Source of the DNA: a virus
Direction: 5' to 3' (one strand)
DNA length: 64,000 bases
Virus genome (UHGV): UHGV-0305822
The position numbers and the translations under genes were made by a program. Below are positions 11,712-56,702 of the stretch, one piece after another. Position 1 is the stretch's first letter, and each line of letters opens with the position of its first letter. The notes beneath the pieces were generated by a model. The model worked only from the letters and a program-made list of their open reading frames with translations. It did no database searches and had not been told where the DNA came from.

Positions 11712-11721
11712 TTTTCACCTC

Positions 11722-12120
11722 TTAGGTTGGGCCAGAACAGCCACCAGAGCAAGCACCAGAACAACCCGTAGAACAACGGCCCGAGCAAGCACCCCCACAG
11801 GTCCCACTGCAACCTGAGCAGCCACCGGAACACGTTGAACTACATCCAGTACACTGGTTACCGCACGCAGAGGAGCAGCTACCTACACACACTGACGTAC
11901 AGGTGCCCGAACAACTCGTACAGCCATGCGTACAACCGTTTGAGCACGTCCAGCTGCAACTCCCCCCGCAGTCTAACCGACTTGGCGTCCAACCCGAAAA
12001 AGTGTCGGCGGCATTATGTGCTTTCGACGCAACTTGCGGATCAACACGTGGGCCAGTTGCCATTTGGTTCTCTACGTTGGTGATTCGGTCACGTACATTT
12101 TTAACACTGATCGCCATCAC
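11722..12120 (-). CDS. Cys-rich leader+core protein A (132 aa)
   Basis: N-terminal MAISVKNVRDRITNVENQ..., junction RLDCGGSCSWTCS, then Cys/Gly/Ser/Thr repeats; GTG-ATG start with AAGGA RBS. Confidence 0.6.
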   Translation of the reverse strand: MMAISVKNVRDRITNVENQMATGPRVDPQVASKAHNAADTFSGWTPSRLDCGGSCSWTCSNGCTHGCTSCSGTCTSVCVGSCSSACGNQCTGCSSTCSGGCSGCSGTCGGACSGRCSTGCSGACSGGCSGPT

Positions 12121-21700: not shown

Positions 21701-22908
21701 GTTGGGTCGATAGTCCCCACGATAGGGTCGGCGCGAGAACCTTTACCGGTAAAGCTAATCCCATTACGACCTTCAATGTACACCTTCGAATCGTCAGGGT
21801 CGCCACCGCCACCAGAACCCGCATCTGGATCTTGTTGGTATTCCATCAACGCCGTGGTGGTCAGTAACGGGTTACCGTTCAGGGTGAGTTTGTTCATCCC
21901 TAAAGCATCGCCTGTTGACTCGATGCGTAATGTGTTTTTACCGGCACGCCAGTTGATATAACGTCCTGCACCTGTGCCTTCCAGATGTCCTACCGCTAAT
22001 ACCACAGAACCGTTGGATTTTAACGTAAAACCATCGTTGGCAAAAATGATTTCTGACTCACCGTTTTTCGAACGGAACTGTGCGCGGTTTCCTGACACCG
22101 TACAGTTAAACACGCCCCGTACTTCCGAAGAAATCCAGTGAGAGATATACGTGTCGATAACTGACTGGGGTAAACGAAACGCTTTCAGCTCATCCGTCAG
22201 TGCTTTCAACTTTAACCCGTACGCCATAAAGGTGTCGGGCGTTTTCAAGTTAACAGGATGCGCGTTAATCTGCGCGGATGTGGTTTCGTGCGGGTTCTTC
22301 GCTGCGATATGTGCTGGGTAGTTAAATGCTTCGATTTCTTTACCCAACGCAGTCACTAACGCTTTAACTTCAGCTAATTTGTCTTTAATTAGCTGGTTAG
22401 CGTCGTCGGTTTTCAATTCAATATCGTGAACTGCCGACGCTAAATATTTTTTGTTCAGCAAATCCGCCCAGGACGTTGCTGCTGGCGTCGCTGGATATAA
22501 CGATGGTCTACCGTCTAATAACAACCAGTCAGCACTGACTGGGTTATTCAAATATTTCACCAGTTCATCGAGAATGTCAACAAACGGGTCGTAGAACGTA
22601 CCGCCGAGCATTTGTCCTTCAAAGGTTACGATACCCTTGATGGATGGGTTGATAAGGTGTACCCCACAATACACGTTGGCTGCTACCGAGTCATCCAGTT
22701 CCGTCAGCTGATATTGCAGTTCGTAGTCCACCCCACGACTCAGTGGGGTGGTTGAACCTGGTTGTCTGACGACCAAATCTTCAAAGAACGGGCGGTGGTC
22801 TAAAATCACCACCCGATCGTTGTTGTTCTCTGACCCGATGATACGCTCCTCTAAGAAGTGATTCTCGGCTTTCGTCCCCCGAGGATCGTAAGGATACGCT
22901 TTCATCAA
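18703..22908 (-). CDS. large tail fibre protein (1401 aa)
   Basis: N-terminal HRPFF ... GVDYEL motif; ATTAEKGVAKLKTG...AATPASL resembles the phage fibre repeat A[ST]xxxxG..[KR]LAT...AVTP..L. Confidence 0.65.
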   Translation of the reverse strand: MMKAYPYDPRGTKAENHFLEERIIGSENNNDRVVILDHRPFFEDLVVRQPGSTTPLSRGVDYELQYQLTELDDSVAANVYCGVHLINPSIKGIVTFEGQMLGGTFYDPFVDILDELVKYLNNPVSADWLLLDGRPSLYPATPAATSWADLLNKKYLASAVHDIELKTDDANQLIKDKLAEVKALVTALGKEIEAFNYPAHIAAKNPHETTSAQINAHPVNLKTPDTFMAYGLKLKALTDELKAFRLPQSVIDTYISHWISSEVRGVFNCTVSGNRAQFRSKNGESEIIFANDGFTLKSNGSVVLAVGHLEGTGAGRYINWRAGKNTLRIESTGDALGMNKLTLNGNPLLTTTALMEYQQDPDAGSGGGGDPDDSKVYIEGRNGISFTGKGSRADPIVGTIDPTKATTAEKGVAKLKTGKGTETTGVAATPASLAPYSTDLSGYVAKTTMINGKPMNDGSRTITKADLGLGQADNTADVDKPLSTELNTALSGLADAGHHHDWSELGIYKASQTVYGIGRYATNQNGLVENRAVVPNILKELSARLDVVAAAIANAKEGSVTDFAAVKGADWRFNSQGTAISVQDLKYFYLLNGAKADSAVTGSIDLQTTPMFNWFSPNNQIETTWPTGKVSAGKGINWTGIEEPPLMGFQSVPVGKTASQMGDQSVVTVLAKTRVRARQPKLWVYAAGGGPVTVYINGIQAATGQSPLVAVYETSADVENYTVAVKAECSDTAKSAAVQFEVYDGDYPVYFSGPETHVEFLQEFVTTHVGIRHYLYVNMLTGSLYSRTEPIQSIAVDPERGYIGYVDIVAGESYSNKTVSFETTFDFGKSTEVSEHIDARKAHGLSSVDWTLTDNPRLPLLNRAIPEPRALIYRKTLGSGSGGTLCTLSRGLFSYSHGLNVKSDLELIFSTEGATPYCWFTPFNPKENNAPTFEGSFVFDVDDIAGTKALSAAPDLILCASSQGGTVGRRYVRINLTSKTCKVGVGAGSTSEVWHKSFELNNGSMLMDGGRETSVEITTKDVLFNGEVANAEILDLIGWGPNGDKISANHAPRGMIRYRYNVNTRVLRLALSFSQFGSTTINLRQIEMTLPFDLVDYFTGDGVGLAFNGLSEKCFLTINHALIDPKTGNIDIDKYHYLRSLFESYTDSSVGWLADSKDGDYYQKLIDPTTHVYELNYCPTETIALPTGQGSVAISHEGQLPAQFFPRKLSRGALMAKKGELHASWNNEWSTSKAAANRYRHKLILRFAQGADKQQYRVAKVTGTVKCNWPGKVIIGDAGKDAYVSAIDSVPFALSTSADTGKAVTLTPKDLRVGQDIYIVLEPPGNNPEGYELNFTCSLDVTDENGVRQDQLNAQSFELRSGESQFLMEKRNPYHITSKAWKWILAVLKRELNGKQLGDRT

Positions 22909-22918
22909 AAAATTCTCC

Positions 22919-25900
22919 TTAATCGCGAATGATTACCGCCTGCACTTTATTGTTGGTGTCGATAAACGACATTACGCGCTCCTTGTTAAGATAAGGAGGT
23001 ATCGGTAACGCAGCGTAATCCGCCAGGTTGTTATTAAATTCAGTTGCCACTAACGCATTAAGCGTTTCAGGGTCTGAACTGACACCGGTCAATTCCATAA
23101 CGCGCACACGATTTAATGAGGAATAGTTGCTAATATAGTCTAACAACGTACCATAGACTTTATTCGCGGTTGTGCTATCTGCCGTAGAACGGATGTTGGC
23201 ACGAACTTCATCCTCATAAAGTCCCCCTAAACCGTAGTAAATAGGGGTATACGGATCGTTAACGATAGGTGCGATATTGAACCCTGTTAGACGGTCAGTT
23301 AGAGGGATTTTCTGCGTAGCTCCCCCTGCTGCCGTGCAACTTACGTATTTATCAGTCGCAGATAAAAACACCACGATGGTATACGTAGTGCCCGCTAAGG
23401 TCAATGTTGCGTTAAACGTTATTGCGTTATTTGCAGCACGGGTGTGGGTAAACGTTACGTCAGGTTGTAACGTATTCCACGGCGCAGGCGTAACACGCTT
23501 CGTTGGTGTGAAACCTAACACTACCGATTTCCCGCTACCGAAGTTCAAACCGAACCCTGCGTAACAATATTCACCGTTGCTGTCAGTTAAACGATAACCA
23601 CGAGTGATAAGTAACGACAACCGCATAAACTCGCCGTCGGTGTTTTTCCAACAACCTAAAACAGTTTCTAGCACCGTGCCGGTTTTTGCGTTGCTTTCTG
23701 TTTCCCAACTTACCCGCATTCCTGCGTTCTTAAAAGCTGGGAACATGTTGTGGATAAACCCGTGTAGGTTATCGCTTACCCCTTTCGCGTCAAAAATCCA
23801 CTTGGATGCGAGCTGGTCGTATTTCACCCCGTCTAAAGCTTTATACTGCCCACCGGCAACATAACGCCAATCTGCTTCACCGCGTACTACTGCCTGGAGT
23901 CCAGAAGCCCAGCAAGGTGCGCCTACCGTTAAGTTAGCTAACCCAAGCGTTGCACGTGACGCGGAGCGCTGAATGTGTGCGTTGTCATCGGCTTTATGAT
24001 CTTTCAGTTCACGGAAATCACCCAACCGTGTGACATTACGCATCTCCGTAACGAACACCTCAGAAATGTCGTTAACACCAATCAACCCTACACGCGTCAT
24101 GGTATCCGTTTCAGCCTGACTGTAGCTGTCGTGGACAATATACTTCGCTTTGTTATCAACGATATCAACAAAAATCCCTGCGTAGATTTCTGTATTCAAT
24201 TTCGGAAAACGTTCACTGACGTTAATCGTCATCAACGGAACGTCGTATGTTTCACCACCGATAAAATACGTTGAAGCTGGAAGCGTGACCAGAATTTTGT
24301 CTTTGACCGTAAGGTCTATTAAGTCGTTACCAGACTCACCAAAACGTATAATGTCAAGACGTGCCTCCGAGTCAACGCCGCTGACAGCGCGCTCCAATTT
24401 TTCAATCTGGGAAGTCTGCGCCATTACCACACTCCCATCGAGTGCTAAAGTCGCATCATCCACATCCAGACCAAATTTAATCAGACCACGTTGCGCTGTG
24501 GTTGCGTTCCCAGTACCAAAAGCGGTAAACGGGTGTTGGTGAACTTTAGGCGAGTATTTATCTAACTCCGCACGTTGTGCTGTAGAAATCGGTAAATCGA
24601 CATCGGGCGTATTCGCAACGTTACCTAAACCAAAGGTAATCTTATCGATAGTAACCGAGCTGGTAAGTTGCATGTCGTTAATGTACGATTTAACTGCAAC
24701 TAATTTACCGGTGAACTCCGCATCGAGTTTTTCAATCAGTGCTGGCGTTGCTGCAAGGTTTTCAGCGGTACCGAACTCATCGGTCAACTGCCAAGCTGCC
24801 AGAGCTGTTGTATCGGTCGCGGTAGGGAGAATAAAGGTCGCTACGAACGGCGAGGCTTTTATCCCGCTACCGGTGATCGTAACCGTTGTTGTCGAGTTTG
24901 CGTAGAATAAACCTGTACCACCTGCGGTATTGCCTGGTAGATACGGGGCCACGGTGGTGGGGTCTAAAAGTTTTTTACCACGCCACTGTAACCCTCGATC
25001 ATCAGGATACAACATAAGCTGGTTAGTACCTGCTTGGAACGTTACGGGGTTGTTACCCACGTTAACATCAGTAGAACCTTGACCGATGAACTTAATGGAT
25101 TTCGGATCAACGACAAACTGAGCGCCTAAACGTGTTTCGTCAACAACATCCGGTGCTTTCTTAATGGTAACCGTGTTACCTTTGTTTTGCGAACTAATGG
25201 TAACGGCGTCGGCAACATTATTGATCAGCGATTTAAAGTGGTGCTGATTCTCTAATGCTTCTAACGCGGCGTCCATGTTATTGAAGTTAATCCGACCGCT
25301 ATACGTTTTACTGTTTACGGTAATAACGACGTCAAACACATTCCCTGTACGCTTCAGTTGAAAACGTAGCGTAAAATCCCCATCCGGTATTGCCGGATTA
25401 GGAGCTTGTGAAATATACCGAACTGCCGGTACCGGACTCCCGTAACCGTGCAACGCCAGTTCGATAGTAAGAGTACCGGACCAGACTTCACCGCTAATCT
25501 CTACGTACTTACCGGAGTTACTACCAGGATTTTCGTAGAAACGTAAACCAACCCTACCGACCGCTTCATTACCAGACGCTGTTTTACGACCAGTAACAAT
25601 AAAGTCTATATCTTGCAGGTTGGCAGGCACCGCATTAAAGTTAGCACTGAAACCGCTTTTCGCTCCTGTGTAACGAAGCGCGCCGTGATATCTGTGACCT
25701 CTACTAACATAGCTTTCGCTAAAATAAGGACTCACGTATTTCGACATCGAAACCGGATCAACTTCCGTCGTGAACGAAGTAAAACCCGGAAGTGTGGTAA
25801 TCGTGCCGTTAACGTTCTTGCTCGCCGATTCACGAAGCAGTTTTTTCTGTGCGGTTAACGTTGCTTGTGTTGGGTACTTAGCATTAACGTAATCCGTTAA

Positions 25901-27241
25901 CTGCTGTTTCGTTTTCCCGTAAGCTAACGCGGCATCCGACGCAATACCATTCAGCTCTAACGCACGGATCGGACCCCACGTATCGGTGTGCGGGTTGTCC
26001 TTACGTGTAACGTGTTCGTGTGCAGGCGCGTTACGATACAGCTGCTCAACTAACTGATGGTATTTGACTATTAACTGGTAGACATCGTTATCGACGTCAG
26101 GTTCTGGTGCGCCGGGTAAAGAACGAATTTGAATATAATCGTTTTCGGCCGCATACCAGTTTAAATTAATGTTCGTTTTAAACTTCAACCATTTAGCAAC
26201 ATCCGTTTTCGAATACCCTGCCGAGAACTCATCAGGCGGTGTATCGACATTGAATGTGTAATCCATGGTCTGTTTATTTGTTTTTACTACGATGACGTAA
26301 ACACCGTTTCCGGGTTGACGGGTTACACTAAAATCGATATCGTTTTTTAACTCATCGTCAGTTAAACCGTTGATTAACGTATAATCGTAGTTTGTTGAAC
26401 CGCTACCAATAGCGACCGTTAAGACCAGTGAGATTTTGCGCTGTTTTAGCTGCAACCGTAGAATACTTGCACCGCCGTTAGCATAACAGAGCATCCAATC
26501 GATCTGTTCGTTTGGATTCAATTTCGTCATGTCTGGCAGAATAGCAGGAATTCTGTGTTTCACTGACAGGGCGTAGTCGTTAAAGGTTGCAGTTTTATAA
26601 CTCAAGCTATAACGATGACGGGTAGTGTTGTAGGTGAAGCCACCTTTATTGTCGTATACGGCATACTGCTCGGAAGTGATAACCTTGCTATTAGCACGGT
26701 ATTCTAAATCCAGGGTATTGCGTGCGATGGGGTTAAGTCGACTCACGACTTCCCCTAACGAATCGCCTAATCCAGCAATAGCCTGCATTAATTCCAGTTC
26801 ACCTTTCCAATTCTCCCAATCGAACTGGATATCGACCGGCGGAAAGTAAACGTCCCCGATGACGGTGTCCCACTGACACGCAGACGGGTATTTATCTTTA
26901 TTGAGTTCGCGTTCTGCGGTAATCTGTTGTTGGGTAGCCTGACCACAACCAACGGCGTGGTAATCTACCGTAAAATTCGATTTGTATTTGTCATTAACAA
27001 TCCAAATCATCCCGTGAATGAGATAGGCTGTGCGCAACATACCGGTCTCGTACGGGTGTGTAATAACGTAATCGTCGCCTAAGGTCAGTGTTTTGCCGCC
27101 GCTCTTGACCACCAGGGATGTGGTGAAAAAAGGGGCGTGGGCAGGTACCAACATTCGGTATTTCGTACCAATGACGGCGACCGCTTCACCGGTTATTTTA
27201 TTCCCCGGTTTTTTGAAGTGTGGGTCTAGGACGACAGCCAT
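22919..27241 (-). CDS. large tail fibre protein (1440 aa)
   Basis: N-terminal HAPFF ... GDDYVI motif; TTAQRGLIKFG fibre-repeat-like segment; only 10 nt from next gene (co-transcribed). Confidence 0.65.
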   Translation of the reverse strand: MAVVLDPHFKKPGNKITGEAVAVIGTKYRMLVPAHAPFFTTSLVVKSGGKTLTLGDDYVITHPYETGMLRTAYLIHGMIWIVNDKYKSNFTVDYHAVGCGQATQQQITAERELNKDKYPSACQWDTVIGDVYFPPVDIQFDWENWKGELELMQAIAGLGDSLGEVVSRLNPIARNTLDLEYRANSKVITSEQYAVYDNKGGFTYNTTRHRYSLSYKTATFNDYALSVKHRIPAILPDMTKLNPNEQIDWMLCYANGGASILRLQLKQRKISLVLTVAIGSGSTNYDYTLINGLTDDELKNDIDFSVTRQPGNGVYVIVVKTNKQTMDYTFNVDTPPDEFSAGYSKTDVAKWLKFKTNINLNWYAAENDYIQIRSLPGAPEPDVDNDVYQLIVKYHQLVEQLYRNAPAHEHVTRKDNPHTDTWGPIRALELNGIASDAALAYGKTKQQLTDYVNAKYPTQATLTAQKKLLRESASKNVNGTITTLPGFTSFTTEVDPVSMSKYVSPYFSESYVSRGHRYHGALRYTGAKSGFSANFNAVPANLQDIDFIVTGRKTASGNEAVGRVGLRFYENPGSNSGKYVEISGEVWSGTLTIELALHGYGSPVPAVRYISQAPNPAIPDGDFTLRFQLKRTGNVFDVVITVNSKTYSGRINFNNMDAALEALENQHHFKSLINNVADAVTISSQNKGNTVTIKKAPDVVDETRLGAQFVVDPKSIKFIGQGSTDVNVGNNPVTFQAGTNQLMLYPDDRGLQWRGKKLLDPTTVAPYLPGNTAGGTGLFYANSTTTVTITGSGIKASPFVATFILPTATDTTALAAWQLTDEFGTAENLAATPALIEKLDAEFTGKLVAVKSYINDMQLTSSVTIDKITFGLGNVANTPDVDLPISTAQRAELDKYSPKVHQHPFTAFGTGNATTAQRGLIKFGLDVDDATLALDGSVVMAQTSQIEKLERAVSGVDSEARLDIIRFGESGNDLIDLTVKDKILVTLPASTYFIGGETYDVPLMTINVSERFPKLNTEIYAGIFVDIVDNKAKYIVHDSYSQAETDTMTRVGLIGVNDISEVFVTEMRNVTRLGDFRELKDHKADDNAHIQRSASRATLGLANLTVGAPCWASGLQAVVRGEADWRYVAGGQYKALDGVKYDQLASKWIFDAKGVSDNLHGFIHNMFPAFKNAGMRVSWETESNAKTGTVLETVLGCWKNTDGEFMRLSLLITRGYRLTDSNGEYCYAGFGLNFGSGKSVVLGFTPTKRVTPAPWNTLQPDVTFTHTRAANNAITFNATLTLAGTTYTIVVFLSATDKYVSCTAAGGATQKIPLTDRLTGFNIAPIVNDPYTPIYYGLGGLYEDEVRANIRSTADSTTANKVYGTLLDYISNYSSLNRVRVMELTGVSSDPETLNALVATEFNNNLADYAALPIPPYLNKERVMSFIDTNNKVQAVIIRD

Positions 27242-37559: not shown

Positions 37560-37592
37560 CCCGGCCCCGTTTACTCGGGGCTTCTTTTTTTG
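37560..37592 (+). terminator. rho-independent terminator
   Basis: Stem GCCCCG / CGGGGC followed by TTCTTTTTTT. Confidence 0.6.
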
Positions 37593-37611: not shown

Positions 37612-38220
37612 ATGAACGAAATTACATTAGTTCGTTTTCTTGAAGCGATGCAAAATGCAGAGCGCTTTTCGCATACGCCTTTATTCATTGACTTAATGGA
37701 AGAAGAAGTAGAGGGCTTCCTGGCATACCCACGCTTACGGGAATATTTTAAACGCAAAACACCGACTGCTTACGAAAAGTTGGTTTACGCGCTTGAAAAC
37801 AGTACAACACTGTTAACGTCGCCTTTTAAGGCGTTGGAGGCTTTAGACCCGGCTGGTACCACAAGTATCCCACAACGTGTTGTGTTCTACTATATCGACC
37901 ACGATCGAATTAAAGCCGATGTTGTTAACTGGATCTCTGAAAACGCAGTTCCTGAAACACGCACTTTTAATCTCTGTCCCGTAGAAGAAGGGTGGAAGGT
38001 CGGTAGCCACTATTCTTACCCGTACCAATCCATTAAATCGCCGTTTTTATACCCGGTTTATCTGGATGATGTTACACCTGGAAATTGTATCCCGGTAACA
38101 AATCTGATCTGTACATTGACAATGGAAGTCTTAGCCACAAAGGCGGGACAGGTTTGGGTAGAAAACACGAAGAACGTCGATTATTGGACTTCAATGGGTT
38201 ATCACCTGTACACCAAATAA
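37612..38220 (+). CDS. hypothetical protein (202 aa)
   Basis: Long ORF with AAAGGAAAG RBS; no metallophosphatase (Mre11/SbcD) motifs. Confidence 0.5.
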   Translation: MNEITLVRFLEAMQNAERFSHTPLFIDLMEEEVEGFLAYPRLREYFKRKTPTAYEKLVYALENSTTLLTSPFKALEALDPAGTTSIPQRVVFYYIDHDRIKADVVNWISENAVPETRTFNLCPVEEGWKVGSHYSYPYQSIKSPFLYPVYLDDVTPGNCIPVTNLICTLTMEVLATKAGQVWVENTKNVDYWTSMGYHLYTK

Positions 38221-38225
38221 CGTTT

Positions 38226-38268
38226 GGGAGAACCTTCGGGTTCTCCCTTTCTTTATTTTTTTCTTTTT
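38226..38268 (+). terminator. rho-independent terminator
   Basis: Stem GGGAGAACC / GGTTCTCCC, loop TTCG, then long T-rich tract. Confidence 0.65.
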
Positions 38269-38298
38269 ACACCACACTCCGTCTTTATGGAGGTGGGT

Positions 38299-40803
38299 AT
38301 GCTAAAAGTTGAACGCATTATACTCAAAGGTTTTACGGGGATGGGGTTACATGAAATTGAAACCTTCGATTTCACTATCCAGTCTCCAACAACAATTATC
38401 CTGGGTGGGAACGGCTGCGGGAAAACCAGTCTACTGTCTGTGTTCTTACCCTTAGCACCGGCTAAAACCGAATTTAGGGACGGCGGTTCTTACACAAACT
38501 ACTGTTTAGTTGGCGATCAACGCTATCGATTCAAAGTTGCCCGTAAAGGCAACTCTTTGGTTTGTGATATTGAGAACTTGACCACGGGGACAAAGATCGT
38601 CGAGCAAGGTAATGCGAAAGTCTACAACTCCCGTGTTGAAGAAATCACGGGTATTACGAAAGAGATTAAAGAACTATTAAATGGTGAGGTGTTGTTAACC
38701 GATGCGGGAACCGAATTACGCCGCAAATGGTTTTACCGTTTAAGTACCTCTGACCTCACTTACGCGTTAGGGTTTTATCAGCGTTTACGTAAAAACCTTA
38801 CTGCCTTAAATGGGGGTATTGAAATCACCAGCCGCAAGATCGCCGAATTACGGACGCGTGTTATTGAGAACGAGGAAGAACGGCAGCAGTTAGCGACGAG
38901 ATTAAAAGGTTTGGAATCGGATTTACGTGAACTGAACCGAGAAATCGAACAGTTGCCAGGATTAAATCGTGCCGTCACCATCGAAACAATCCAAGCGTTA
39001 TTAAACAGCTTGGGCCCAACCATCGACGCAATATTACAACATCGTGGTGGCCTGCCTACTGATGAACAGATACTGACCGCGCGACAAAACGAAGCTACGG
39101 CCCGCGAAGCTGTCGTGTCTACTGAAACAGAGGTATCGATGTTGAATAAAGACTTGTCGTTATTAATGGATGAGTCGACACGACAAGACTACCTGATGCG
39201 GAATCACGAAGGTCTCAAGAATACGCTGGCACGTTTACGTGAGTTACTTACCAAATGGGACACCGAACATCTCTTTCCGGGTCTATTTAACGACAACATC
39301 AATTTAGACCAACTTCGTGCGGCTACAGATGCGCGTGTTTGGGGGCAACGGTTGGGAACAACACTAGACGCAATTCATTCAACCGAAAAACTTAACGTTT
39401 TGGAAGAACGACTTCTGGTGATGGATCAAAAAACCGCAGGGATGCGGGATAGACTCCAGCGAGTGGAGAACGTTTTACAGAATTTAAATCACGAACGTAA
39501 TCACTACTTAGAAACAGCGGAAGTGGATTGCCCGCAGTGTCGGTTTAAGTTTCGGCCCGGTGTTACGCGTTCTTTACCTGAACTTGAGTCTTCGATTCGC
39601 GGACAACAACAGCAGCGCACGGAACTGCAAACACAGTTAGAGGCCCTATTACGCGATCGTGTTGAATTAGAATCTGATGTAACTTATATGCGGCAGGTTC
39701 GTGAGATTGTACTGACGTATTCAAAGGACCCGGTATTGAGCATGTTCTTTAAGCGTTTGCAAGAACGTAACGTTTTCACAGAATCACGCGAACAGTTCGG
39801 GAGTCTATGCGCAGCGTTTGACAGTGAGTTGTACTCTGCTATTGAGTACCATGAAACCCGACAACGGTTAGTGAAGGCGGAAAAAGAATGGCAGGATGCC
39901 GTAGCGGCCGTTGGTAACGTCGATGGTGCTTTACAACAGAAAATCGCCTTCCAACAGTCACGATTAGGTAAAGCCACAGAAATGCTCTCAATGCGTCGTA
40001 GAGAGCACGAACTGGCTAACACGACACTTACCTATCTGGTGAATGTTAAACGTGCTGTAGATGATTTCAGTGCGTTATTCGAACGGTTAGAGAGTGATGT
40101 TAAGGTTACGTTGACAAATACGGTCGTCGAGGAACTCTTACGTGCACGAGAAGGGAAGCTGGATGCTTTTACAACCGCACGCGAACGTTATCGTCAGATG
40201 GAAAATGAATTGAATCAGCTCAACAGTTTGGAACGCGAACTTGCTGACTTACAAGCCCAGCAGTTCAATAACAAACTGATGATTCAAGCCTTCTCGCCAG
40301 AAAAGGGTGTACTTAGAAAGTATTTTTACAACGCTATCGTTAGAATCACAGAGTTAATGACGCGTTATATCGAACAAGTCTGGACGTACCCCATGCGCGT
40401 TATGCCTTGTGACCTCACTGACGGCGATTTGGATTATACTTTTCCTGTCCAGCTAAAAACGCATCCTGAGCCTGTTCCTGACGTGCGTAAAGGGTCTAAG
40501 GCGCAGCGTGCGATATTTAATCTGATGTTCAGGCTGACCGCGTACAAAGCGCTGAAGTTGCATCAGTTTCCGTTGCTTTTGGATGAGCCTTCGGAAGGCA
40601 TGGATGAGGAGCACCGTAACAACCTGGTCGGCTTTATTAAAACGTTAGCAAACTCGGGAGAATTTTCTCAACTGTTGGTAGTCTCCCACGAAGCCGAGGT
40701 TCATTCTAAACTTAATGAAGCATCGTACTGTGTCATCGAACCGGAAGGGGTGACATTGCCTGCGGTGTATAACGAAGGAGTAAAAATTGTTTATGCAAAC
40801 TGA
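38299..40803 (+). CDS. Rad50/SbcC-like ABC-type ATPase with zinc hook
   Basis: Walker A GGNGCGKTS near N-terminus; long coiled-coil-like middle with central CPQC (zinc-hook-like); C-terminal LLLDEPSEGMD Walker B/D-loop; ATG at 38299 after GGAGGTGGG (ORF track start 38224). Confidence 0.7.
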   Translation: MLKVERIILKGFTGMGLHEIETFDFTIQSPTTIILGGNGCGKTSLLSVFLPLAPAKTEFRDGGSYTNYCLVGDQRYRFKVARKGNSLVCDIENLTTGTKIVEQGNAKVYNSRVEEITGITKEIKELLNGEVLLTDAGTELRRKWFYRLSTSDLTYALGFYQRLRKNLTALNGGIEITSRKIAELRTRVIENEEERQQLATRLKGLESDLRELNREIEQLPGLNRAVTIETIQALLNSLGPTIDAILQHRGGLPTDEQILTARQNEATAREAVVSTETEVSMLNKDLSLLMDESTRQDYLMRNHEGLKNTLARLRELLTKWDTEHLFPGLFNDNINLDQLRAATDARVWGQRLGTTLDAIHSTEKLNVLEERLLVMDQKTAGMRDRLQRVENVLQNLNHERNHYLETAEVDCPQCRFKFRPGVTRSLPELESSIRGQQQQRTELQTQLEALLRDRVELESDVTYMRQVREIVLTYSKDPVLSMFFKRLQERNVFTESREQFGSLCAAFDSELYSAIEYHETRQRLVKAEKEWQDAVAAVGNVDGALQQKIAFQQSRLGKATEMLSMRRREHELANTTLTYLVNVKRAVDDFSALFERLESDVKVTLTNTVVEELLRAREGKLDAFTTARERYRQMENELNQLNSLERELADLQAQQFNNKLMIQAFSPEKGVLRKYFYNAIVRITELMTRYIEQVWTYPMRVMPCDLTDGDLDYTFPVQLKTHPEPVPDVRKGSKAQRAIFNLMFRLTAYKALKLHQFPLLLDEPSEGMDEEHRNNLVGFIKTLANSGEFSQLLVVSHEAEVHSKLNEASYCVIEPEGVTLPAVYNEGVKIVYAN

Positions 40804-40972
40804 TTGGTTCCGTCGTATTGTGGATGCGGCAGGGTTTGGCTTCATGTCCATTCTAGCGGTTCTTTATGTCATGTTTTGTGTGGTGATGATTTTATGGGTA
40901 GTTTCATCTTATCTGATTAAACTATCGTGGGGTTCAATTTGGCGTCAACGCGAATGCGAATGGCGGAATTAG
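40793..40972 (+). CDS. small membrane protein (59 aa)
   Basis: Hydrophobic stretch FGFMSILAVLYVMFCVVMILWVVSSYLI; ATG at 40793 overlapping upstream stop. Confidence 0.4.
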   Translation: MQTDWFRRIVDAAGFGFMSILAVLYVMFCVVMILWVVSSYLIKLSWGSIWRQRECEWRN

Positions 40973-40982
40973 GAGAGGGAAT

Positions 40983-41081
40983 ATGGTTGTAGGGGTTCTG
41001 TTAACACTTGGCTCGTTGTGGTTAATTGGTAAAGGTTTAAACTGGCTGATTAAACGTCACCGTTGGGCGTTCGAAGATTAA
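40983..41081 (+). CDS. small hydrophobic peptide (32 aa)
   Basis: MVVGVLLTLGSLWLIGKGLNWLIKRHRWAFED, AGGAGAGGGA RBS; not in ORF track (short). Confidence 0.3.
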   Translation: MVVGVLLTLGSLWLIGKGLNWLIKRHRWAFED

Positions 41082-41138
41082 CCACCCAAATAATCCAGAA
41101 GATACCCTCCGGTGTGAGGGTATTGACAGGAGCAGAAA

Positions 41139-41267
41139 ATGACCACGATAAACGCTACGAATGTAGCGATATCCGCACTATACGACGCGGAACTTTCATG
41201 GGGTGGATTAATGATCACCACAGCCATATTAGCCGCTGCGGCTTTCGTCATCGCGCGTTGGTTTTAA
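41139..41267 (+). CDS. small hydrophobic peptide (42 aa)
   Basis: MTTINATNVAISALYDAELSWGGLMITTAILAAAAFVIARWF, AGGAG RBS 6 nt upstream; not in ORF track (short). Confidence 0.3.
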   Translation: MTTINATNVAISALYDAELSWGGLMITTAILAAAAFVIARWF

Positions 41268-41298
41268 TTTTACTTTTTTGCGTCTCTAAGGTTTGCAA

Positions 41299-41742
41299 AT
41301 GGAAATTTATTTGTTGAACGCATCTTCTAAAGTCGGTGAACGACAAGCTGCCGATTTACTCAAACTACACTACCGTTACTTGGACCACCAGGCTACATTA
41401 CTGAAAATCAAAACGTCGGTGCCGAAGTTAAATGCGCGACAGCTGATCGAAGGTAACTGCATAGTTCTGGTGTATCAGGATGATGTCGCGGTAGGATACT
41501 GTAGTTATCGGAATCGTAACGGTTCACTTAAGATACGTTCGGTATACGTGCTCCCAGACTATCGTCAACGGGGTGTAATGAAAGAGATTTTCAAAGCAAT
41601 TGCAGCTGATGAAGTTTTCGGCGAGATTGTTACTGGCATGTATGCGAAATGTAAAGAAGCAAAAGAGTATTTCATCCGACGCGGCTATCAAGCGGTTTAC
41701 TCACACGATCGTGAGTGGGTCGATTTTAGCAAAACATTCTAA
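41299..41742 (+). CDS. GNAT-family N-acetyltransferase candidate
   Basis: VYVLPDYRQRGVMKEIF resembles the GNAT acetyl-CoA-binding motif A region; ATG at 41299 (ORF track start 41293 is TTG). Confidence 0.4.
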   Translation: MEIYLLNASSKVGERQAADLLKLHYRYLDHQATLLKIKTSVPKLNARQLIEGNCIVLVYQDDVAVGYCSYRNRNGSLKIRSVYVLPDYRQRGVMKEIFKAIAADEVFGEIVTGMYAKCKEAKEYFIRRGYQAVYSHDREWVDFSKTF

Positions 41743-42379: not shown

Positions 42380-42466
42380 TGGGTAAAACATATATCGCTA
42401 TACTTGTCGAGCTATCAATCGGCGGTACACGTTTTAATACTACACATCAACTCCGGGCGTTTCGTT

Positions 42467-42964
42467 ATGTTAACGGTACGTAAAGAATCTGAAATTGGTA
42501 ACGATCTTTTTAATGCGCCCGAAGACTATAAAGTCGTTACCATTAACTGCGTAGGAGCGATGGGTCGCGGTATTGCACTCGCGTGTCGTGAACGCTACCC
42601 CAACCTTTATCAGGATTATCGTAAGCGGTGTCGTGAAGACGAAATTAAGATTGGAAGCGTTTACGTTTACTCTGACGAAAAGTGTATCTTGCTCCCCACG
42701 AAAACACATTGGCGTTTAAAATCCCAGGTTTCTTATGTTACTGCGGGCATTACCGCATTAGCAGACTGTGTTGAGGATCTGGATACCAGCGTTGCTATCC
42801 CTCCGTTGGGAATGGCAAATGGGTGGTTAGATTCCTGGGAAAGACAAGAAATCTTTTTGTGGCTTTACAAAAAACTTGAACCGAGGAGGCAGCGCTACAC
42901 GTTATACTTACCTGATAAGCTGTACCAAGAAGCAGAGTCATTAATTCCAAACTCTTTTAAATAG
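42467..42964 (+). CDS. TARG1/DarG-like macrodomain protein (ADP-ribose hydrolase candidate)
   Basis: NCVGAMGRGIALACRERYP parallels TARG1 DCRMGAGIAVLFKKKFG; later AIPPLGMANGWLDSWERQ parallels SMPRIGCGLDRLQWENV (comparison from memory); ATG at 42467 (ORF track start 42404 is TTG). Confidence 0.6.
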   Translation: MLTVRKESEIGNDLFNAPEDYKVVTINCVGAMGRGIALACRERYPNLYQDYRKRCREDEIKIGSVYVYSDEKCILLPTKTHWRLKSQVSYVTAGITALADCVEDLDTSVAIPPLGMANGWLDSWERQEIFLWLYKKLEPRRQRYTLYLPDKLYQEAESLIPNSFK

Positions 42965-43064
42965 ATATTATCATTAGGGCACACAACAAAGGAGTATTAG
43001 CTGTCCGCGCCGTCATTTCGTCTTACGGAATACGGAAATGTATAAATCCAACTGGAGAAACAAA

Positions 43065-43763
43065 ATGTTTCGTATCTTCTTTCTTTTACTGGTAACACTT
43101 TTCGCGTTTAACGCACAGGCGTCAACGTCAACGCCACATTCTAAGCATCAGCGTGAGTTTGCACAAATCCAACATCGGTTCGAAAAAGTCAGCCCGTTAA
43201 TTGTGGAAATCTCACGAAAGCAGGGCGTTGATCCCAAGCTGATGATTACGCTGATTTATCGTGAATCGCGTTTTGATCCCAAGGCTTACAACAAAAGCTC
43301 ACGAGCGCACAGCCTGGTACAAATGCTTCCAAGTACCAAGCGTAATCTGCTAAAGCTTTATGGAAAAGAATTAGGTCTTAGTCAGAACGCCGATTTGTAT
43401 AATCCGCGTAACGCTGTTTTGCTGGCTACCGCGTATGTTAAACATCTTGAGAAGGGGTTAACCAAACGACTCAAACGCAAGCCCACCATGGCTGAAATTG
43501 CGTTAGCTTACCACTGGGGTGAAAGTGGCGCTCACACGCGAATCAAAAGCAAATCTCGAGCAGCACAACGAGAAATGGCAGGCTTTATGAAAGACGCCGC
43601 GTTCTATAGCGCGAAAATCGATGTGCCTGTTGTTGTGGGCTCGGCCCCACGTCAGCTTGCGTTTGCGAAGAAAACACCACGTCAGATTCAACTGGCGGAA
43701 GTTAGTAGAATTTGGGATACGATAAACATGAGTTTTCCAATCAATAGAGGAGTTACCCTTTGA
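43065..43763 (+). CDS. secreted lytic transglycosylase (SLT domain) candidate
   Basis: Signal peptide MFRIFFLLLVTLFAFNAQA; YRESRFDPKAYNKSSRAHSLVQMLPST resembles the SLT catalytic ES ... G(L)MQ(L/I)(M)P motif; ATG at 43065 after GGAGAA. Confidence 0.55.
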   Translation: MFRIFFLLLVTLFAFNAQASTSTPHSKHQREFAQIQHRFEKVSPLIVEISRKQGVDPKLMITLIYRESRFDPKAYNKSSRAHSLVQMLPSTKRNLLKLYGKELGLSQNADLYNPRNAVLLATAYVKHLEKGLTKRLKRKPTMAEIALAYHWGESGAHTRIKSKSRAAQREMAGFMKDAAFYSAKIDVPVVVGSAPRQLAFAKKTPRQIQLAEVSRIWDTINMSFPINRGVTL

Positions 43764-53232: not shown

Positions 53233-53775
53233 ATGAAAATACTTATCGATTTCTCACTCAGTGAGTCACGGGGCAAATTAAACAAACTGTTAAGTGGGAT
53301 GCGTAGCCGCGTTGCGTTTGAACTGCACGACGCGATAGCAGTACATGAGAACAAGATTTCTGAAGAACACAGTGGGGTCGAAATTACTATCCTGGATTCA
53401 GAAGCGATGGTGAATAATCTCATTGAACAGTTAGAGCGAAAAATCCATTCGGCCATGACATACCCACATTTGGTGCGGGTAACTGATCCCGATACGGATA
53501 TTCACCTGATTCTTGAGAAAGCCTTTCTACATGCCGCGCATTACTTACAGAATAATGCTCCAGATACCCTCGATGAAGTGTATGTCGCCATATTGCAGCG
53601 ACAATCTTCAACGACGGATATAATAGACACAACGTGTTGGAGCGATATTCTTACCAACGAAACAATGTCCCGTATCCGGGATATTTTCCTTGAGACACTC
53701 GGGTTAGTTGAGAAAATCTGCCATGCCGAGCTCATCTACCTGTCATCAAAATACGGTCAACCTAAAGGAGTATAA
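53233..53775 (+). CDS. hypothetical protein (~180 aa)
   Basis: In-frame ATG right after upstream stop (ORF track start 53203 overlaps previous gene). Confidence 0.5.
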   Translation: MKILIDFSLSESRGKLNKLLSGMRSRVAFELHDAIAVHENKISEEHSGVEITILDSEAMVNNLIEQLERKIHSAMTYPHLVRVTDPDTDIHLILEKAFLHAAHYLQNNAPDTLDEVYVAILQRQSSTTDIIDTTCWSDILTNETMSRIRDIFLETLGLVEKICHAELIYLSSKYGQPKGV

Positions 53776-53777
53776 TC

Positions 53778-54302
53778 GTGGATATTTTAATTCAGCTTCG
53801 TAAGAAAACAACCATTGCCACACCGATAGCGCTAGAGGAGAAAATCTCTGGCGCAGTTGCACGCAAGCTCTGTGGTGCTCATGGCTTTAGCGACCATCAG
53901 GAGCGGGTCGTTACTGTCGCCACATTACACAACTTACGTCACACAGTGCATTACTGTTTAGTTGACAACGTCACCATCACTCTTGATGATAACGTAAATG
54001 TCGACCAACTGCGACGCGAAATTGTCCACAAGATCGAGGCTTACAATAGACGTTTCGATCGGGCGTGTACGCGTTTAACTAATGACGAGGCACTACGAAA
54101 ACGTTTGAAACTTGAAATCGAATATGCAGCGCAACGATACGGGATTGGCGGTACCGAACCGTGTCTGACTGAACAAGAAATCACGTTAGCAATTGAGGTT
54201 TATACCACTCTCTGTTGCGCCATCCTAAAAGAGACCAACCACGAAATTACAAAAGCGTTGTTAAACACCGCAGACAAACTCTCCCCAATTTTAGGACAAT
54301 AA
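53778..54302 (+). CDS. hypothetical protein (174 aa)
   Basis: GTG start after AAAGGAG. Confidence 0.5.
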   Translation: MDILIQLRKKTTIATPIALEEKISGAVARKLCGAHGFSDHQERVVTVATLHNLRHTVHYCLVDNVTITLDDNVNVDQLRREIVHKIEAYNRRFDRACTRLTNDEALRKRLKLEIEYAAQRYGIGGTEPCLTEQEITLAIEVYTTLCCAILKETNHEITKALLNTADKLSPILGQ

Positions 54303-54303
54303 A

Positions 54304-54792
54304 ATGAACGTAAATGATATTATCAATCTTAGTAAAAGTGATATTGTGCACGAATTTCTCAATCACGGTGCGCGTGTAAGAAAAGAAATTGAAGAAAAGT
54401 TGACCCCAATGGTTGCTTCCACTCCTTGGATGGCAGGATACGCCGCTGCCTACTTCAGTTGCCAGAGCGGAAAAGCATACATAGCTAACCTGTTTGATTT
54501 CTTCAATCCATCAAACGACCACATAACAGAAACAGACGTTCGACAACGCCTTCGCGATTGCCGGTATCAGTTCTTAAGAAATGTTACTGATGCGTACAAT
54601 TTAGAGCAATTTCCTACACCGATTGTTCCCTATACAGAACCGGAATGGGAAAATTTTTATAGACGAATTTGGATTGGTGGGTCTTACGTGGCAGATATAA
54701 TGGAAATCATCGAACGTAGTGAAAACCAACTTGCTCTGCAACTATGGGAGTGGTTAAAAGCTAATTATCCTGATTACGTCAAAATCGACTAA
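54304..54792 (+). CDS. hypothetical protein (162 aa)
   Basis: ATG 2 nt after upstream stop. Confidence 0.5.
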   Translation: MNVNDIINLSKSDIVHEFLNHGARVRKEIEEKLTPMVASTPWMAGYAAAYFSCQSGKAYIANLFDFFNPSNDHITETDVRQRLRDCRYQFLRNVTDAYNLEQFPTPIVPYTEPEWENFYRRIWIGGSYVADIMEIIERSENQLALQLWEWLKANYPDYVKID

Positions 54793-54798
54793 TACACA

Positions 54799-54829
54799 CC
54801 CTAGCTTCGGCTAGGGTTACTTTATTTTT
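54799..54829 (+). terminator. rho-independent terminator
   Basis: Stem CCCTAGC / GCTAGGG, loop TTCG, then TTACTTTATTTTT. Confidence 0.6.
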
Positions 54830-54851
54830 AACCATTTTAGGAGAATAAACC

Positions 54852-55778
54852 ATGTATTTGTACAAAAGTAAAAAAGTAAAAGGTATTAAAGACTGCCTTA
54901 GACAAATGGGGTCTCAGCATCTTGAAAATGTCATGGAAGAAAACCGAATAAAGGAAAATCCTGTCTCGAAATGGATAAAAAAGAATCGTAACCATTTAAC
55001 CAATGCCTTTATACCTTACGACGCTGAGTTAGGTCTCAAAGATCCCCGTTCCCTTCACGCACAAACATTGGCAATTGGATGGCTATACGGTGGTGCTTCC
55101 TTAATATCCAACCAAGCACTTAGAGAACTTGTTTTCGAGACTGAGATGCCCAGTAAATTCCCTGAAGAATGGTTGGACTTTATACCTACTTGGACTGTGG
55201 CAATCGACGTAGGTAAAGAGGATGAGACTTTCTTTCTCGGCTATCGAAAAAACGGGAAGAGAAGGTTTATCATAATTGCCACAAATACTGATTACGGGTT
55301 AACAGAAGGCGTTACCACAATTGCCACTTGTTCGTTAGAGCTTCGTAGTGCAGGGAACGGGCTTGTGGAAATCGACTATGCCGACGGTGTGGAAAACGAA
55401 CAAGAAAAGATGTTGTGGTTATCTCTGGCCAAAGCCGCCACTTCGATGATATTTCTGTGCACGCTAATCCCGCCTAACTACAGGGAGACTTTTAATGATA
55501 TTAAGTTCAAGGAAATCAAAAAGAACGGTAGTATTAGTTACGACGTTAAACCTCGTGAACGCGATGTTAAGATAGATATCACGCCAGGACAAGTGAATTA
55601 TCTAAAAGGGTTTAACACTGACTTGAAAACCATGCAGGGTATCAAACATGCTAAGGCTGCCCACATCCGTCGCGCACACTGGCGCAGATATTGGGTCGGC
55701 CCTAGAAATGGTGAAAGAAAGAGAAAACTTTGTTGGATTCCACCTACCTTTGTCCGTGGCTACGTACCCCACAATTAA
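54852..55778 (+). CDS. hypothetical protein, HIRRAHW family member 1 (308 aa)
   Basis: C-terminus AAHIRRAHWRRYWVG...WIPPTFVRGY paralogous to next gene. Confidence 0.55.
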   Translation: MYLYKSKKVKGIKDCLRQMGSQHLENVMEENRIKENPVSKWIKKNRNHLTNAFIPYDAELGLKDPRSLHAQTLAIGWLYGGASLISNQALRELVFETEMPSKFPEEWLDFIPTWTVAIDVGKEDETFFLGYRKNGKRRFIIIATNTDYGLTEGVTTIATCSLELRSAGNGLVEIDYADGVENEQEKMLWLSLAKAATSMIFLCTLIPPNYRETFNDIKFKEIKKNGSISYDVKPRERDVKIDITPGQVNYLKGFNTDLKTMQGIKHAKAAHIRRAHWRRYWVGPRNGERKRKLCWIPPTFVRGYVPHN

Positions 55779-55802
55779 GCTAAAGTGTTTAGGAGTATTA
55801 AA

Positions 55803-56702
55803 ATGACAACGAATAATAGACTTTACGGGAAAGCGCTAAGACGCATGAGTGAACAAATAGAAAAGGCACACCAAACAATTCACGGATTAGATCAGTGTCG
55901 CTTTATTCGGTTCATTAACGAGCATAAACGTCAAATACCCGTAACGTTTATGCCAGTTAAAGATCCGACCTATCGTGAGTATGGCGTTACCGAACAGATT
56001 CCCAGACTGATTAAGCAGTCTCTGGGACTAGGATGGCAATACGCTGCTGTTGAAATCATCTCGGATGAAGAACTGATGGCGCTCTTAGCAAAAACTGAGA
56101 GACTAAAAAATATCCCGTACTTCTGGATAGAAACCATCCCTTCATTTACTTTCTCGGTTACTGTAAATCTCGACGAATGTCCAATCACGTTATTTATCGG
56201 AAGACGTCTTTACGAAGGTGAAGAAGTTCTCTTTGTGATGTCATGCGAAGAACATGACGAGTCGGTATACATGGAGTTTGAGATTTACACGATCGATAAA
56301 AGTAATGATGATTTCGTGGAGTTAAAGCCGCTCCTTACTTCGGTTAAGGAGAATCAACGACTACTCGACGCCGTCTATATCGGGCTATATCTTTCATCAC
56401 GAATTAAGCGAACCGAACGCGAGAAGAAAGAATTTCGCGGAAGGTCCATTCGTTATGTTCCTGATACAGAAATTCGCCCACGTAGTGAAGCAGTCGTTTT
56501 AGATGTAAGTCCGGTACAATGGGAAGATATAGAGCAGCAACGCAAGGAAGGACACGAGGTTTGTTTGGCGATTTATTGTGCCGCACATATCCGTCGTGCG
56601 CATTGGAAGCGTGTATGGTGTGGTAAAATGTCAGAAATGCGCTGGCGCGAATGGCGATGGATAGCGCCGAGTTACATTTCTGGATTTTATCGTGGGAAAT
56701 AA
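55803..56702 (+). CDS. hypothetical protein, HIRRAHW family member 2 (~300 aa)
   Basis: C-terminus AAHIRRAHWKRVWCG...WIAPSYISGF; ATG at 55803 after TTAGGAGTATTAAA. Confidence 0.55.
   Translation: MTTNNRLYGKALRRMSEQIEKAHQTIHGLDQCRFIRFINEHKRQIPVTFMPVKDPTYREYGVTEQIPRLIKQSLGLGWQYAAVEIISDEELMALLAKTERLKNIPYFWIETIPSFTFSVTVNLDECPITLFIGRRLYEGEEVLFVMSCEEHDESVYMEFEIYTIDKSNDDFVELKPLLTSVKENQRLLDAVYIGLYLSSRIKRTEREKKEFRGRSIRYVPDTEIRPRSEAVVLDVSPVQWEDIEQQRKEGHEVCLAIYCAAHIRRAHWKRVWCGKMSEMRWREWRWIAPSYISGFYRGK

Follow-up and report, generated by a model that had tools for sequence, protein, structure and literature searches.

Does a Rad50-like ATPase gene without a nuclease gene beside it still serve DNA-end processing, or has its product taken on another role? 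The question is raised by an 834-aa open reading frame (ORF) at positions 38299-40803 (plus strand) of a 64,000-nucleotide stretch of viral DNA (UHGV-0305822; hereafter, the window), which encodes an SbcC/Rad50-like split ABC ATPase. An earlier sequence-only reading recognized Walker A, a central CPQC and a C-terminal LLLDE in the product, and left two options, namely that the nuclease partner is encoded elsewhere or that the ATPase has another role. All three motifs are in place, and the features of the gene are as follows.

38226 to 38247, plus strand: terminator-like GC-rich hairpin and T-run (9-bp stem with 6 GC pairs, TTCG loop, T-rich tail).
38289 to 38293, plus strand: Shine-Dalgarno sequence GGAGG, 5 nt before the SbcC ATG.
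38299 to 40803, plus strand: SbcC/Rad50-like ABC ATPase, 834 aa, ortholog of Asesino gp207, SPN3US gp186 and phiKZ gp165.
38404 to 38427, plus strand: Walker A (P-loop) GGNGCGKT, residues 36-43; G36, N38, G39, G41 and K42 invariant in 28 homologs.
39529 to 39540, plus strand: CPQC, residues 411-414; C411 and C414 invariant in 28 homologs and also present in phiKZ gp165.
39529 to 39564, plus strand: predicted zinc-hook motif CPQCRFKFRPGV, residues 411-422; C411, C414, F418, P420 and G421 invariant.
40495 to 40506, plus strand: degenerate ABC signature SKAQ, residues 733-736; S733 and Q736 invariant.
40570 to 40605, plus strand: Walker B and D-loop PLLLDEPSEGMD, residues 758-769, with LLLDE at 759-763; D762, E763 and D769 invariant.
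40684 to 40689, plus strand: H-loop (switch histidine), S796-H797; both invariant.

The hairpin marks the end of an upstream transcription unit just 5' of the SbcC gene. Walker A lies in the N-terminal lobe of the split ABC head, and the signature, Walker B, D-loop and H-loop lie in the C-terminal lobe. The hook and all of the ATPase motifs are invariant in the 28 homologs, down to 30% identity, and phiKZ gp165 carries Walker A, the hook and the Walker B-to-H-loop region at matching positions. The SKAQ signature aligns with SAGQ of Chaetomium thermophilum Rad50. No invariant glutamine was found in the N-terminal lobe of the 28 homologs, the candidate position reading LNGE in the window protein and LTGK in phiKZ; judged from the alignment, another residue may stand in place of the Rad50 Q-loop glutamine in the window SbcC.

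The "SbcC-like" family phrog_77 matches residues 1-833 of the product (E=4.5e-91, 307.8 bits), and the best PDB sequence matches are Rad50 heads. The Pfam SMC_N model scored 34.6 bits, under its 40-bit cutoff, and the NCBIfam Rad50 model NF002244 scored 41 bits against a threshold of 847. When an SbcC profile was aligned by hhalign with the single E. coli SbcC sequence, only the segment from Walker B to the H-loop aligned, at 31% probability.

In the AF2 model (pLDDT 83.3), helical arms at residues 154-405 and 426-664 flank a loop of about 20 residues (406-425) that contains CPQC, with helix 365-405 before it and helix 426-474 after it. The arms have their midpoint at residue 410, and the hook falls there, midway between the ATPase lobes. 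SbcC is thus modelled as two helical arms of about 250 residues with the CxxC hook at the turn of a long hairpin, that is, a predicted zinc hook. The CPQC had been read as a zinc hook from the letters, and in the model it sits where such a hook belongs in a helical hairpin, between two long arms. The best Foldseek match of the model is C. thermophilum Rad50 (7zr1_D, E=1.3e-17). The match to phrog_77, the best PDB sequence and fold matches to Rad50 and the position of the hook at the hairpin turn indicate that the product was rightly assigned to the Rad50/SbcC class.

The fold search alone cannot separate Rad50 from other SMC-like ATPases, because Smc5/6, condensin and MukB were also returned (E 1e-12 to 1e-16) and LmuB and JetC score well too. 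These matches would suit an SMC-like ATPase acting alone, with no nuclease, to organise or segregate the phage's large DNA in the phage nucleus. However, no globular SMC hinge domain was found in the model, where only the CxxC loop, a feature specific to Rad50/SbcC, parts the arms. No kleisin or KITE-like partner was seen adjoining SbcC, and the best matches in both sequence and fold are Rad50.

The window belongs to a phiKZ-like (Chimalliviridae) jumbo phage. Over its full length, SbcC is 71% identical to gp207 of Erwinia phage Asesino, 58% to gp186 of Salmonella phage SPN3US and 22% to gp165 of phiKZ, and its flanks are syntenic with Asesino gp193-gp223. The neighbours of SbcC are conserved phage proteins of unassigned function, a GNAT protein and a macro-domain protein, the latter two encoded 0.5-1.6 kb downstream. 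The SbcC protein is not mentioned by name in the Chimalliviridae core-genome paper or in the Asesino paper. Megablast of the SbcC gene against GenBank phages gave no match, and the relatives were reached by protein-level search. IMG/VR contigs match the window at 96% identity; one of them, IMGVR_UViG_3300029126_000001 (225 kb), aligns with window positions 28295-50801 in a single 22.5-kb alignment at 95.97% nucleotide identity. A look-up of the exact SbcC sequence in an assembly collection returned nothing, and this 96%-identical contig was used in place of the window's own source contig. With no megablast match in GenBank phages and 96% identity to IMG/VR contigs, the phage represents a distinct species-level lineage.

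The absence of metallophosphatase motifs, which had been noted for the ORFs next to SbcC, extends to the whole 64-kb window. A regular expression for the metallophosphatase motif set gave no match, and the lowest E value was 0.84 in tblastn with SPN3US SbcD and 1.3 when a 51-sequence SbcD profile was run on the six-frame translation (positive control, 2.4e-138). The ORF at 42404-42964 was considered as a nearby nuclease on account of its match to phrog_335 ("phosphatase") and was rejected, as Pfam shows a macro domain.

Beyond the window, where the sequence-only reading had proposed to look for an SbcD/Mre11 gene, an SbcD ortholog was found about 86-87 kb from SbcC in three near-identical or closely related contigs of 220-225 kb. 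In IMGVR_UViG_3300029126_000001, a contig of the same phage species, SbcC lies at 53,684-56,185 and SbcD at about 143,104-144,249, which places them approximately 87 kb apart. The spacing is the same, about 86 kb, in the two further contigs, in which SbcD was recovered by a scan with the closest SbcD protein. By extrapolation from the 96%-identical contig, the SbcD partner of the window phage is predicted to be encoded about 87 kb away, on the same strand and about 64 kb past the window's right end. The distance in SPN3US and Stratton is about 90-147 kb. Thomas et al. (2016, PMC5105663) identified SbcD as SPN3US gp27 and described SbcC and SbcD as "drastically separated" in these phages.

The SbcD ortholog matches phrog_100 (E=8.5e-64). 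Across 51 sequences, its metal ligands D22, H24, D58, H101, H180, H212 and H214 do not vary, and neither do the calcineurin-like phosphoesterase motifs I-V to which they belong (D22-x-H24, G57-D58, H101, H180-G181 and H212-x-H214); motif III reads GTPSHD instead of the GNHD of E. coli SbcD and Mre11. For the AF2 model of SbcD (pLDDT 91.6), the best Foldseek match in PDB was E. coli SbcD (7yzo_A, E=4.6e-13); six Mre11 structures came next, and the next class, LpxH, appeared at E values of at least 2e-5. In hhalign, SbcD aligned with E. coli SbcD over motifs I-III at 89.8% probability. A profile of four SbcD orthologs found no match among PDB sequences at E<=1, and Pfam Metallophos scored 15.1 bits on SPN3US SbcD, under its 21.5-bit cutoff.

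SbcC and SbcD are near-universal in jumbo phages (PMC7824862). Searches of GenBank phages returned 290 records for SbcC and 290 for SbcD, and the counts per genus were almost the same. By itself, co-occurrence speaks only weakly for a partnership, since the core genes of Chimalliviridae all co-occur by definition, and the presence of SbcD could be coincidental if SbcC were an SMC-like organiser. In the phiKZ-like family SbcC and SbcD never lie side by side, which would also fit such a role. Nevertheless, a protein of the Mre11/SbcD fold with intact metal ligands is kept in the same genomes, and together with the hook loop this makes an ATPase acting without a nuclease very unlikely.

The gene product is therefore most probably SbcC, the Rad50-like ATPase subunit of an SbcCD complex that belongs to the phage itself and is of the DNA-end-processing, Mre11-Rad50 type. 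Following the paradigm of Mre11-Rad50, SbcCD and T4 gp46/47, two SbcC and two SbcD subunits would assemble into the complex. With ATP bound, the heads of SbcC would close on a DNA end or hairpin; hydrolysis would license cutting and resection by SbcD. The resected ends may then feed recombination-dependent replication and concatemer processing of the genome of about 225 kb. Genetics in the relatives SPN3US and phiKZ shows that they need this function. In SPN3US the SbcC, gp186, is essential, and its amber mutants are non-viable (PMC5105663). In phiKZ, no transposon insertions were tolerated in orf165, and fitness fell when orf165 or orf065 was knocked down by antisense (PMC12676376, PMC12571901). 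The separation of SbcC from SbcD is a family trait of phiKZ-like genomes, in which linked genes are scattered, and gives no sign of a different function.

A role in defence or anti-defence, for example as an LmuB-like sensor of DNA ends or as a decoy against a host Rad50-like defence, was also considered. Lamassu LmuB belongs to the same superfamily, its structures are among the fold matches, and the PADLOC LmuB model PDLC03859 matches SbcC over its full length (E=4.7e-18). The macro-domain and GNAT genes downstream are of kinds at times tied to conflict systems. In the HMM comparison with defence ATPases, however, this best PADLOC match reached 63.7 bits, far under the 308 bits of the phage SbcC family, and LmuB is itself Rad50-like. 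No genes for defence partners lie near SbcC, LmuA- and LmuC-like genes included. The SbcC gene belongs to the phage core and not to a host defence island: it is conserved, syntenic and essential across phiKZ-like phages and not patchy in distribution. A defence or anti-defence function is thus extremely improbable. Of the two options in the sequence-only reading, a partner encoded elsewhere is the one favoured by the distant SbcD gene; the other role that it had in mind, in defence or anti-defence, is unsupported.

As the probable SbcC subunit of SbcCD, the window protein shows no functional difference from SPN3US gp186, phiKZ gp165 and Asesino gp207, which are orthologs of 830-836 aa with a CPxCxxxF[RK]PG hook at the same position and whose SbcD gene is distant too (PMC5105663). 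The predicted two-subunit architecture and end-processing role for recombination-dependent replication resemble those of T4 gp46/gp47 and T5 D13/D12. The T4 counterparts of SbcC and SbcD are essential, as in SPN3US, and small ORFs lie near them, including the transmembrane gp47.1 (PMC5105663). [quoted passage not shown] Thomas et al. reported no BLASTP-detectable similarity to T4 proteins (PMC5105663).

Features that SbcC has in common with E. coli SbcCD and with archaeal and eukaryotic Mre11-Rad50 are a split ABC head, an antiparallel coiled coil (its pairing being predicted here) and the CxxC hook, and the phage SbcD shares the Mre11 fold and phosphoesterase motifs I-III. Sequence similarity to these systems is very weak. 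The signature reads SKAQ in place of SGG[EQ], and the Q-loop glutamine may be absent. The E. coli genes overlap in an sbcDC operon, whereas the phage genes are unlinked.

Three short hydrophobic ORFs of 59, 32 and 42 aa had been listed downstream of SbcC. They are present, each has a Shine-Dalgarno-like site, and relatives keep each of them as a coding sequence.

40787 to 40972, plus strand: small single-pass membrane ORF of 61 aa if it starts at a conserved TTG (40787), or of 59 aa if it starts at an ATG (40793); phrog_16515.
40983 to 41081, plus strand: small hydrophobic ORF, 32 aa, with LGSLWLIGK..W.IK conserved out to SPN3US-level relatives; phrog_13448, E=6.6e-14.
41139 to 41267, plus strand: small hydrophobic ORF of 42 aa that has a transmembrane segment at its C-terminal end; conserved in close relatives.

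Each contains one hydrophobic segment (best 19-residue Kyte-Doolittle window, 1.8-2.8). Rfam and tRNA scans of the window found nothing, so the short-ORF region is not accounted for by known RNA. In SPN3US, an ORF of 43 aa that resembles the 42-aa ORF stands in its place. An 84-aa alternative frame that overlaps the 42-aa ORF (41063-41317) was rejected, with 38-39% amino acid identity in relatives of 87% identity, compared to 64% for the 42-aa ORF. The first small ORF is probably translationally coupled to SbcC because it overlaps the SbcC stop codon; its likely TTG start lies 6 nt past GGAG. It is equivalent in position to SPN3US gp187, a small transmembrane ORF that abuts the SbcC stop (Thomas et al. 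2016, PMC5105663).

The three small membrane ORFs form a clade-specific cassette, which is kept across SPN3US and the related Erwinia-phage clade and not in phiKZ. They may be functional partners of SbcC, for instance tethers to a membrane or compartment as proposed for T4 gp47.1, or an unrelated cassette. A partnership would fit the stop-codon overlap and the start site of the first ORF, as well as the transmembrane ORF abutting SbcC in every relative examined in SPN3US and that clade, and the same idea was raised by Thomas et al. for SPN3US gp187 (PMC5105663). On the other hand, gene overlap is common in dense phage genomes, and relatives differ in how many small ORFs they carry (3 to 5), the window having 3 and not 4-5. 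The cassette is also missing in phiKZ although SbcC is kept there, and phiKZ orf165.1 lies on the opposite strand and is hydrophilic. We therefore consider a functional partnership with SbcC unlikely. More specifically, the cassette might anchor or regulate SbcCD at a membrane or at the boundary of the phage nucleus, an idea already raised informally for gp187 (PMC5105663) that we regard as quite unlikely. If true, such anchoring would amount to spatial control of a potentially dangerous nuclease in a nucleus-forming phage.

The separated arrangement of SbcC and SbcD has already been published for the phiKZ-like family (PMC5105663), and the finding is real but ordinary. The role of the small membrane ORFs and the site of SbcCD action with respect to the phage nucleus are modest questions that the literature has already raised. 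The correct label for the gene is the SbcC subunit of a phage SbcCD complex, which is of little importance beyond annotation. The missing adjacent nuclease should not be taken as evidence of a new function; in phiKZ-like jumbo phages, genes with linked functions are documented to lie scattered.

One long plus-strand open reading frame (ORF) was found at the SbcC locus, both in the ORF list and by translation. A Shine-Dalgarno sequence, GGAGG (38289-38293), lies 5 nt ahead of the ATG at 38299, indicating that this is a biologically sensible start. The Walker A, CPQC and C-terminal motifs named in the sequence-only reading were all present in the 834-aa product.

37563-37582, plus strand: strong terminator-like hairpin
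38226-38247, plus strand: strong terminator-like hairpin, just upstream of SbcC
38299-40803, plus strand: SbcC ORF, ATG 38299, stop 40801-40803, 834 aa
SbcC residues 36-43: Walker A, GGNGCGKT
SbcC residues 411-414: CPQC
SbcC residues 758-769: Walker B plus D-loop, PLLLDEPSEGMD
SbcC residues 796-797: H-loop, SH

The two hairpins bracket a 202-aa ORF (37612-38220; phrog_9964, unknown function), which suggests that a separate transcription unit starts with SbcC.

SbcC matched phrog_77, "SbcC-like subunit of palindrome specific endonuclease," over residues 1-833 (E = 4.5e-91, 307.8 bits). The best general family matches, Pfam SMC_N (34.6 bits; curated cutoff, 40 bits) and NCBIfam Rad50 (41 bits; curated cutoff, 847 bits), were both below threshold. 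The closest sequences of solved structure were the Rad50 head domains of Chaetomium thermophilum and Pyrococcus furiosus. In a Foldseek search of the PDB with the AlphaFold2 model, the top structure was C. thermophilum Rad50 (7zr1_D, E = 1.3e-17), ahead of Smc5/6, condensin, MukB, Lamassu LmuB and JetC. The family, head-domain and fold matches indicate that the Rad50/SbcC class had been assigned correctly.

Invariant positions in an alignment of 28 homologs, the most divergent of them 30% identical, were the Walker A residues, both hook cysteines (C411 and C414), S733, Q736, D762-E763, D769 and H797. The signature motif is degenerate (SKAQ, aligned to SAGQ of C. thermophilum Rad50), and the Rad50 Q-loop glutamine is apparently replaced in residues ~125-135 (LNGE in the window, LTGK in phiKZ). 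phiKZ gp165 is colinear with the window SbcC (22% identity, E = 2e-46), with its hook at residue 412 and the same extended motif, CPxCxxxF[RK]PG.

The SbcC model (mean pLDDT, 83.3) has a predicted architecture of head, arms and hook. A beta-rich N-terminal lobe (1-104) and a C-terminal lobe (672-834) are joined by helical arms (154-405 and 426-664), and the 20-residue loop between the arms (406-425) bears CPQC. The hook lies at the midpoint of the interlobe region (residue 410). A hook outside a coiled coil would have counted against the original assignment; the model instead places it between two helical arms. A hinge domain was absent from the model. The hook in place of a hinge, and the retention of an Mre11-fold partner in the same genomes, make a stand-alone SMC-like organizer role for SbcC unlikely. 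A defense-type ATPase is likewise unlikely: the best match to the PADLOC defense-system models, LmuB, scored only 63.7 bits, whereas the phage SbcC family scored 307.8. Moreover, Lamassu partner genes are absent nearby, and the SbcC gene is core and essential, the essentiality being taken from literature on orthologs (PMC5105663).

A megablast search of GenBank phages gave zero matches. With tblastn, SbcC matched 290 phage records, every one a phiKZ-like jumbo phage; the top matches were Erwinia phages Asesino, Stratton and phiEaH2 (70-71% identity), followed by Salmonella phage SPN3US and its relatives (58%). The gene order flanking SbcC is that of Asesino gp193-gp223, including the downstream macro-domain protein and endolysin. 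Asesino is a Chimalliviridae phage with demonstrated nucleus formation (PMC11724907). Two IMG/VR contigs of 220-225 kb encode an SbcC 99% identical to that of the window. IMGVR_UViG_3300029126_000001 aligned with window positions 28295-50801 as one 22.5-kb block at 95.97% nucleotide identity, and the two are therefore effectively the same phage species.

The absence of a neighboring metallophosphatase held across the whole 64-kb window. An Mre11/SbcD motif regex over all six-frame segments had no match, and the best E values against the window were 0.84 for SPN3US SbcD (tblastn) and 1.3 for a 51-sequence SbcD profile with filters off; the same profile found SPN3US SbcD at 2.4e-138 as a positive control. 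One nearby ORF labeled "phosphatase" in PHROG (42404-42964, plus strand) was rejected as the nuclease because it encodes a macro domain; the label is misleading.

In related genomes the partner was found far from SbcC. The distances the other way round assume a circular or circularly permuted map.

SPN3US: SbcC 168,900-171,407; SbcD 21,020-22,168; ~147 kb apart, ~90 kb the other way
Stratton: SbcC 170,203-172,707; SbcD 21,846-22,997; ~147 kb apart, ~93 kb the other way
phiKZ: orf165 169,093-171,585; orf065 ~55.1-55.8 kb; ~113 kb apart, ~164 kb the other way
IMGVR_UViG_3300029126_000001 (96% identical to the window): SbcC 53,684-56,185; SbcD ~143,104-144,249, same strand; ~87 kb apart

The last contig bears out the suggestion that the partner is elsewhere, and a spacing of ~86 kb was found in two more contigs of the lineage, allowing circular permutation. 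Since the window ends 23 kb past SbcC, the SbcD gene of this phage is expected ~64 kb beyond the right edge.

SbcD matched phrog_100 (E = 8.5e-64), and its metal-ligand residues D22, H24, D58, H101, H180, H212 and H214 were invariant in 51 sequences. Searched against the PDB, its AF2 model (pLDDT, 91.6) came closest to E. coli SbcD from the SbcCD complex (7yzo_A, E = 4.6e-13). Six Mre11 structures ranked after it, and the class below these, LpxH, was weaker by seven orders of magnitude. In hhalign, motifs I-III aligned with those of E. coli SbcD (89.8% probability), with GTPSHD as motif III in place of GNHD. Judged by its conserved catalytic residues and predicted fold, the distant partner is a real Mre11/SbcD. 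The distribution of the two genes matches: SbcD tblastn also returned exactly 290 phage records, with genus counts almost as for SbcC.

The SbcC/SbcD family departs from the canonical catalytic motifs at the SKAQ signature and SbcD motif III (residues 97-102), and apparently also at the Q-loop. A conserved ORF of ~275 aa directly follows the distant SbcD in SPN3US, Stratton and ChrisDB, its start overlapping the SbcD stop; it is a possible additional partner. In three loci from relatives, outside the window, it lies at L002 10166-11002, L014 2637-3473 and L015 2631-3452.

The three tiny hydrophobic ORFs (59, 32 and 42 aa) reported after SbcC were present.

40793-40972, plus strand: first small ORF, 59 aa from ATG, or 61 aa from TTG 40787
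40983-41081, plus strand: second small ORF, 32 aa
41139-41267, plus strand: third small ORF, 42 aa

All have a Shine-Dalgarno-like site, and each product contains a single strongly hydrophobic segment. All three are kept in relatives of 96-99% and 87% identity, with most substitutions at third codon positions. The 87% relatives have ACG in place of the first ATG, while an in-frame TTG two codons upstream, 6 nt past GGAG, is conserved in five of five sequences, indicating that TTG 40787 is probably the real start. The SbcC stop codon falls within this ORF whichever start is used. The family of the 32-aa ORF is phrog_13448 (E = 6.6e-14); the 59-aa ORF gave a weak match to phrog_16515. An Asesino homolog of the 32-aa ORF (KX397364.2; 58% identity, phrog_13448) lacks GenBank annotation; it lies between gp208 and gp209 at ~173,590-173,700 (11695-11805 of the extracted locus, L001). 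Three to five small hydrophobic ORFs directly follow SbcC in every examined member of the clade of SPN3US and related Erwinia phages. In contrast, phiKZ lacks the cassette, and its orf165.1 is hydrophilic and on the opposite strand.

Other genes of the window were as follows.

13425-18608, 18703-22908 and 22919-27241, minus strand: three consecutive giant ORFs, 1727, 1401 and 1440 aa
41293-41742, plus strand: GNAT acetyltransferase, just 3' of the small ORFs
42404-42964, plus strand: macro-domain (Appr-1-p processing) protein, likewise
43038-43763, plus strand: SLT-domain transglycosylase (endolysin), Pfam SLT E = 8.8e-15

The giant ORFs are mutual distant paralogs (24-32% identity over subregions) and resemble the baseplate/fiber paralog family of SPN3US gp168 and phiKZ ORF145 (PMC5105663). 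The endolysin has a hydrophobic, signal-peptide-like N terminus (MFRIFFLLLVTLFAFNAQAS), which suggests that it is secreted or signal anchored. Neither tRNA genes nor Rfam families above the gathering threshold were found in the whole 64-kb window.

Thomas et al. 2016 (PMC5105663) predicted SPN3US gp186 (phiKZ ORF165) to be an SbcC subunit, showed with amber mutants that it is essential, and named gp27 as the SbcD subunit; they described the two genes as drastically separated in these phages. [quoted passage not shown] Both subunits are practically universal among jumbo phages (Iyer et al. 2021, PMC7824862). A phiKZ transposon screen gave zero insertions in orf165 (PMC12676376), and antisense knockdown of core genes 065 ("nuclease") and 165 ("SbcC-like nuclease") lowers phage fitness (PMC12571901). 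With SbcC, a separated SbcD, essentiality and the small gp187 published for orthologs, each element of the original finding is already in print.

By analogy with Mre11-Rad50, SbcCD and T4 gp46/47, the complex would contain SbcC and SbcD in two copies each. The SbcC heads would engage on DNA ends or hairpins, driven by ATP, and license SbcD to cleave and resect. The products may feed recombination-dependent replication and help to maintain concatemers. More speculatively, the small ORFs may tether or regulate SbcCD. The ATPase without an adjacent nuclease is thus a real observation, rightly classified, and the separation of SbcC and SbcD (~87 kb) is a published trait of the family.
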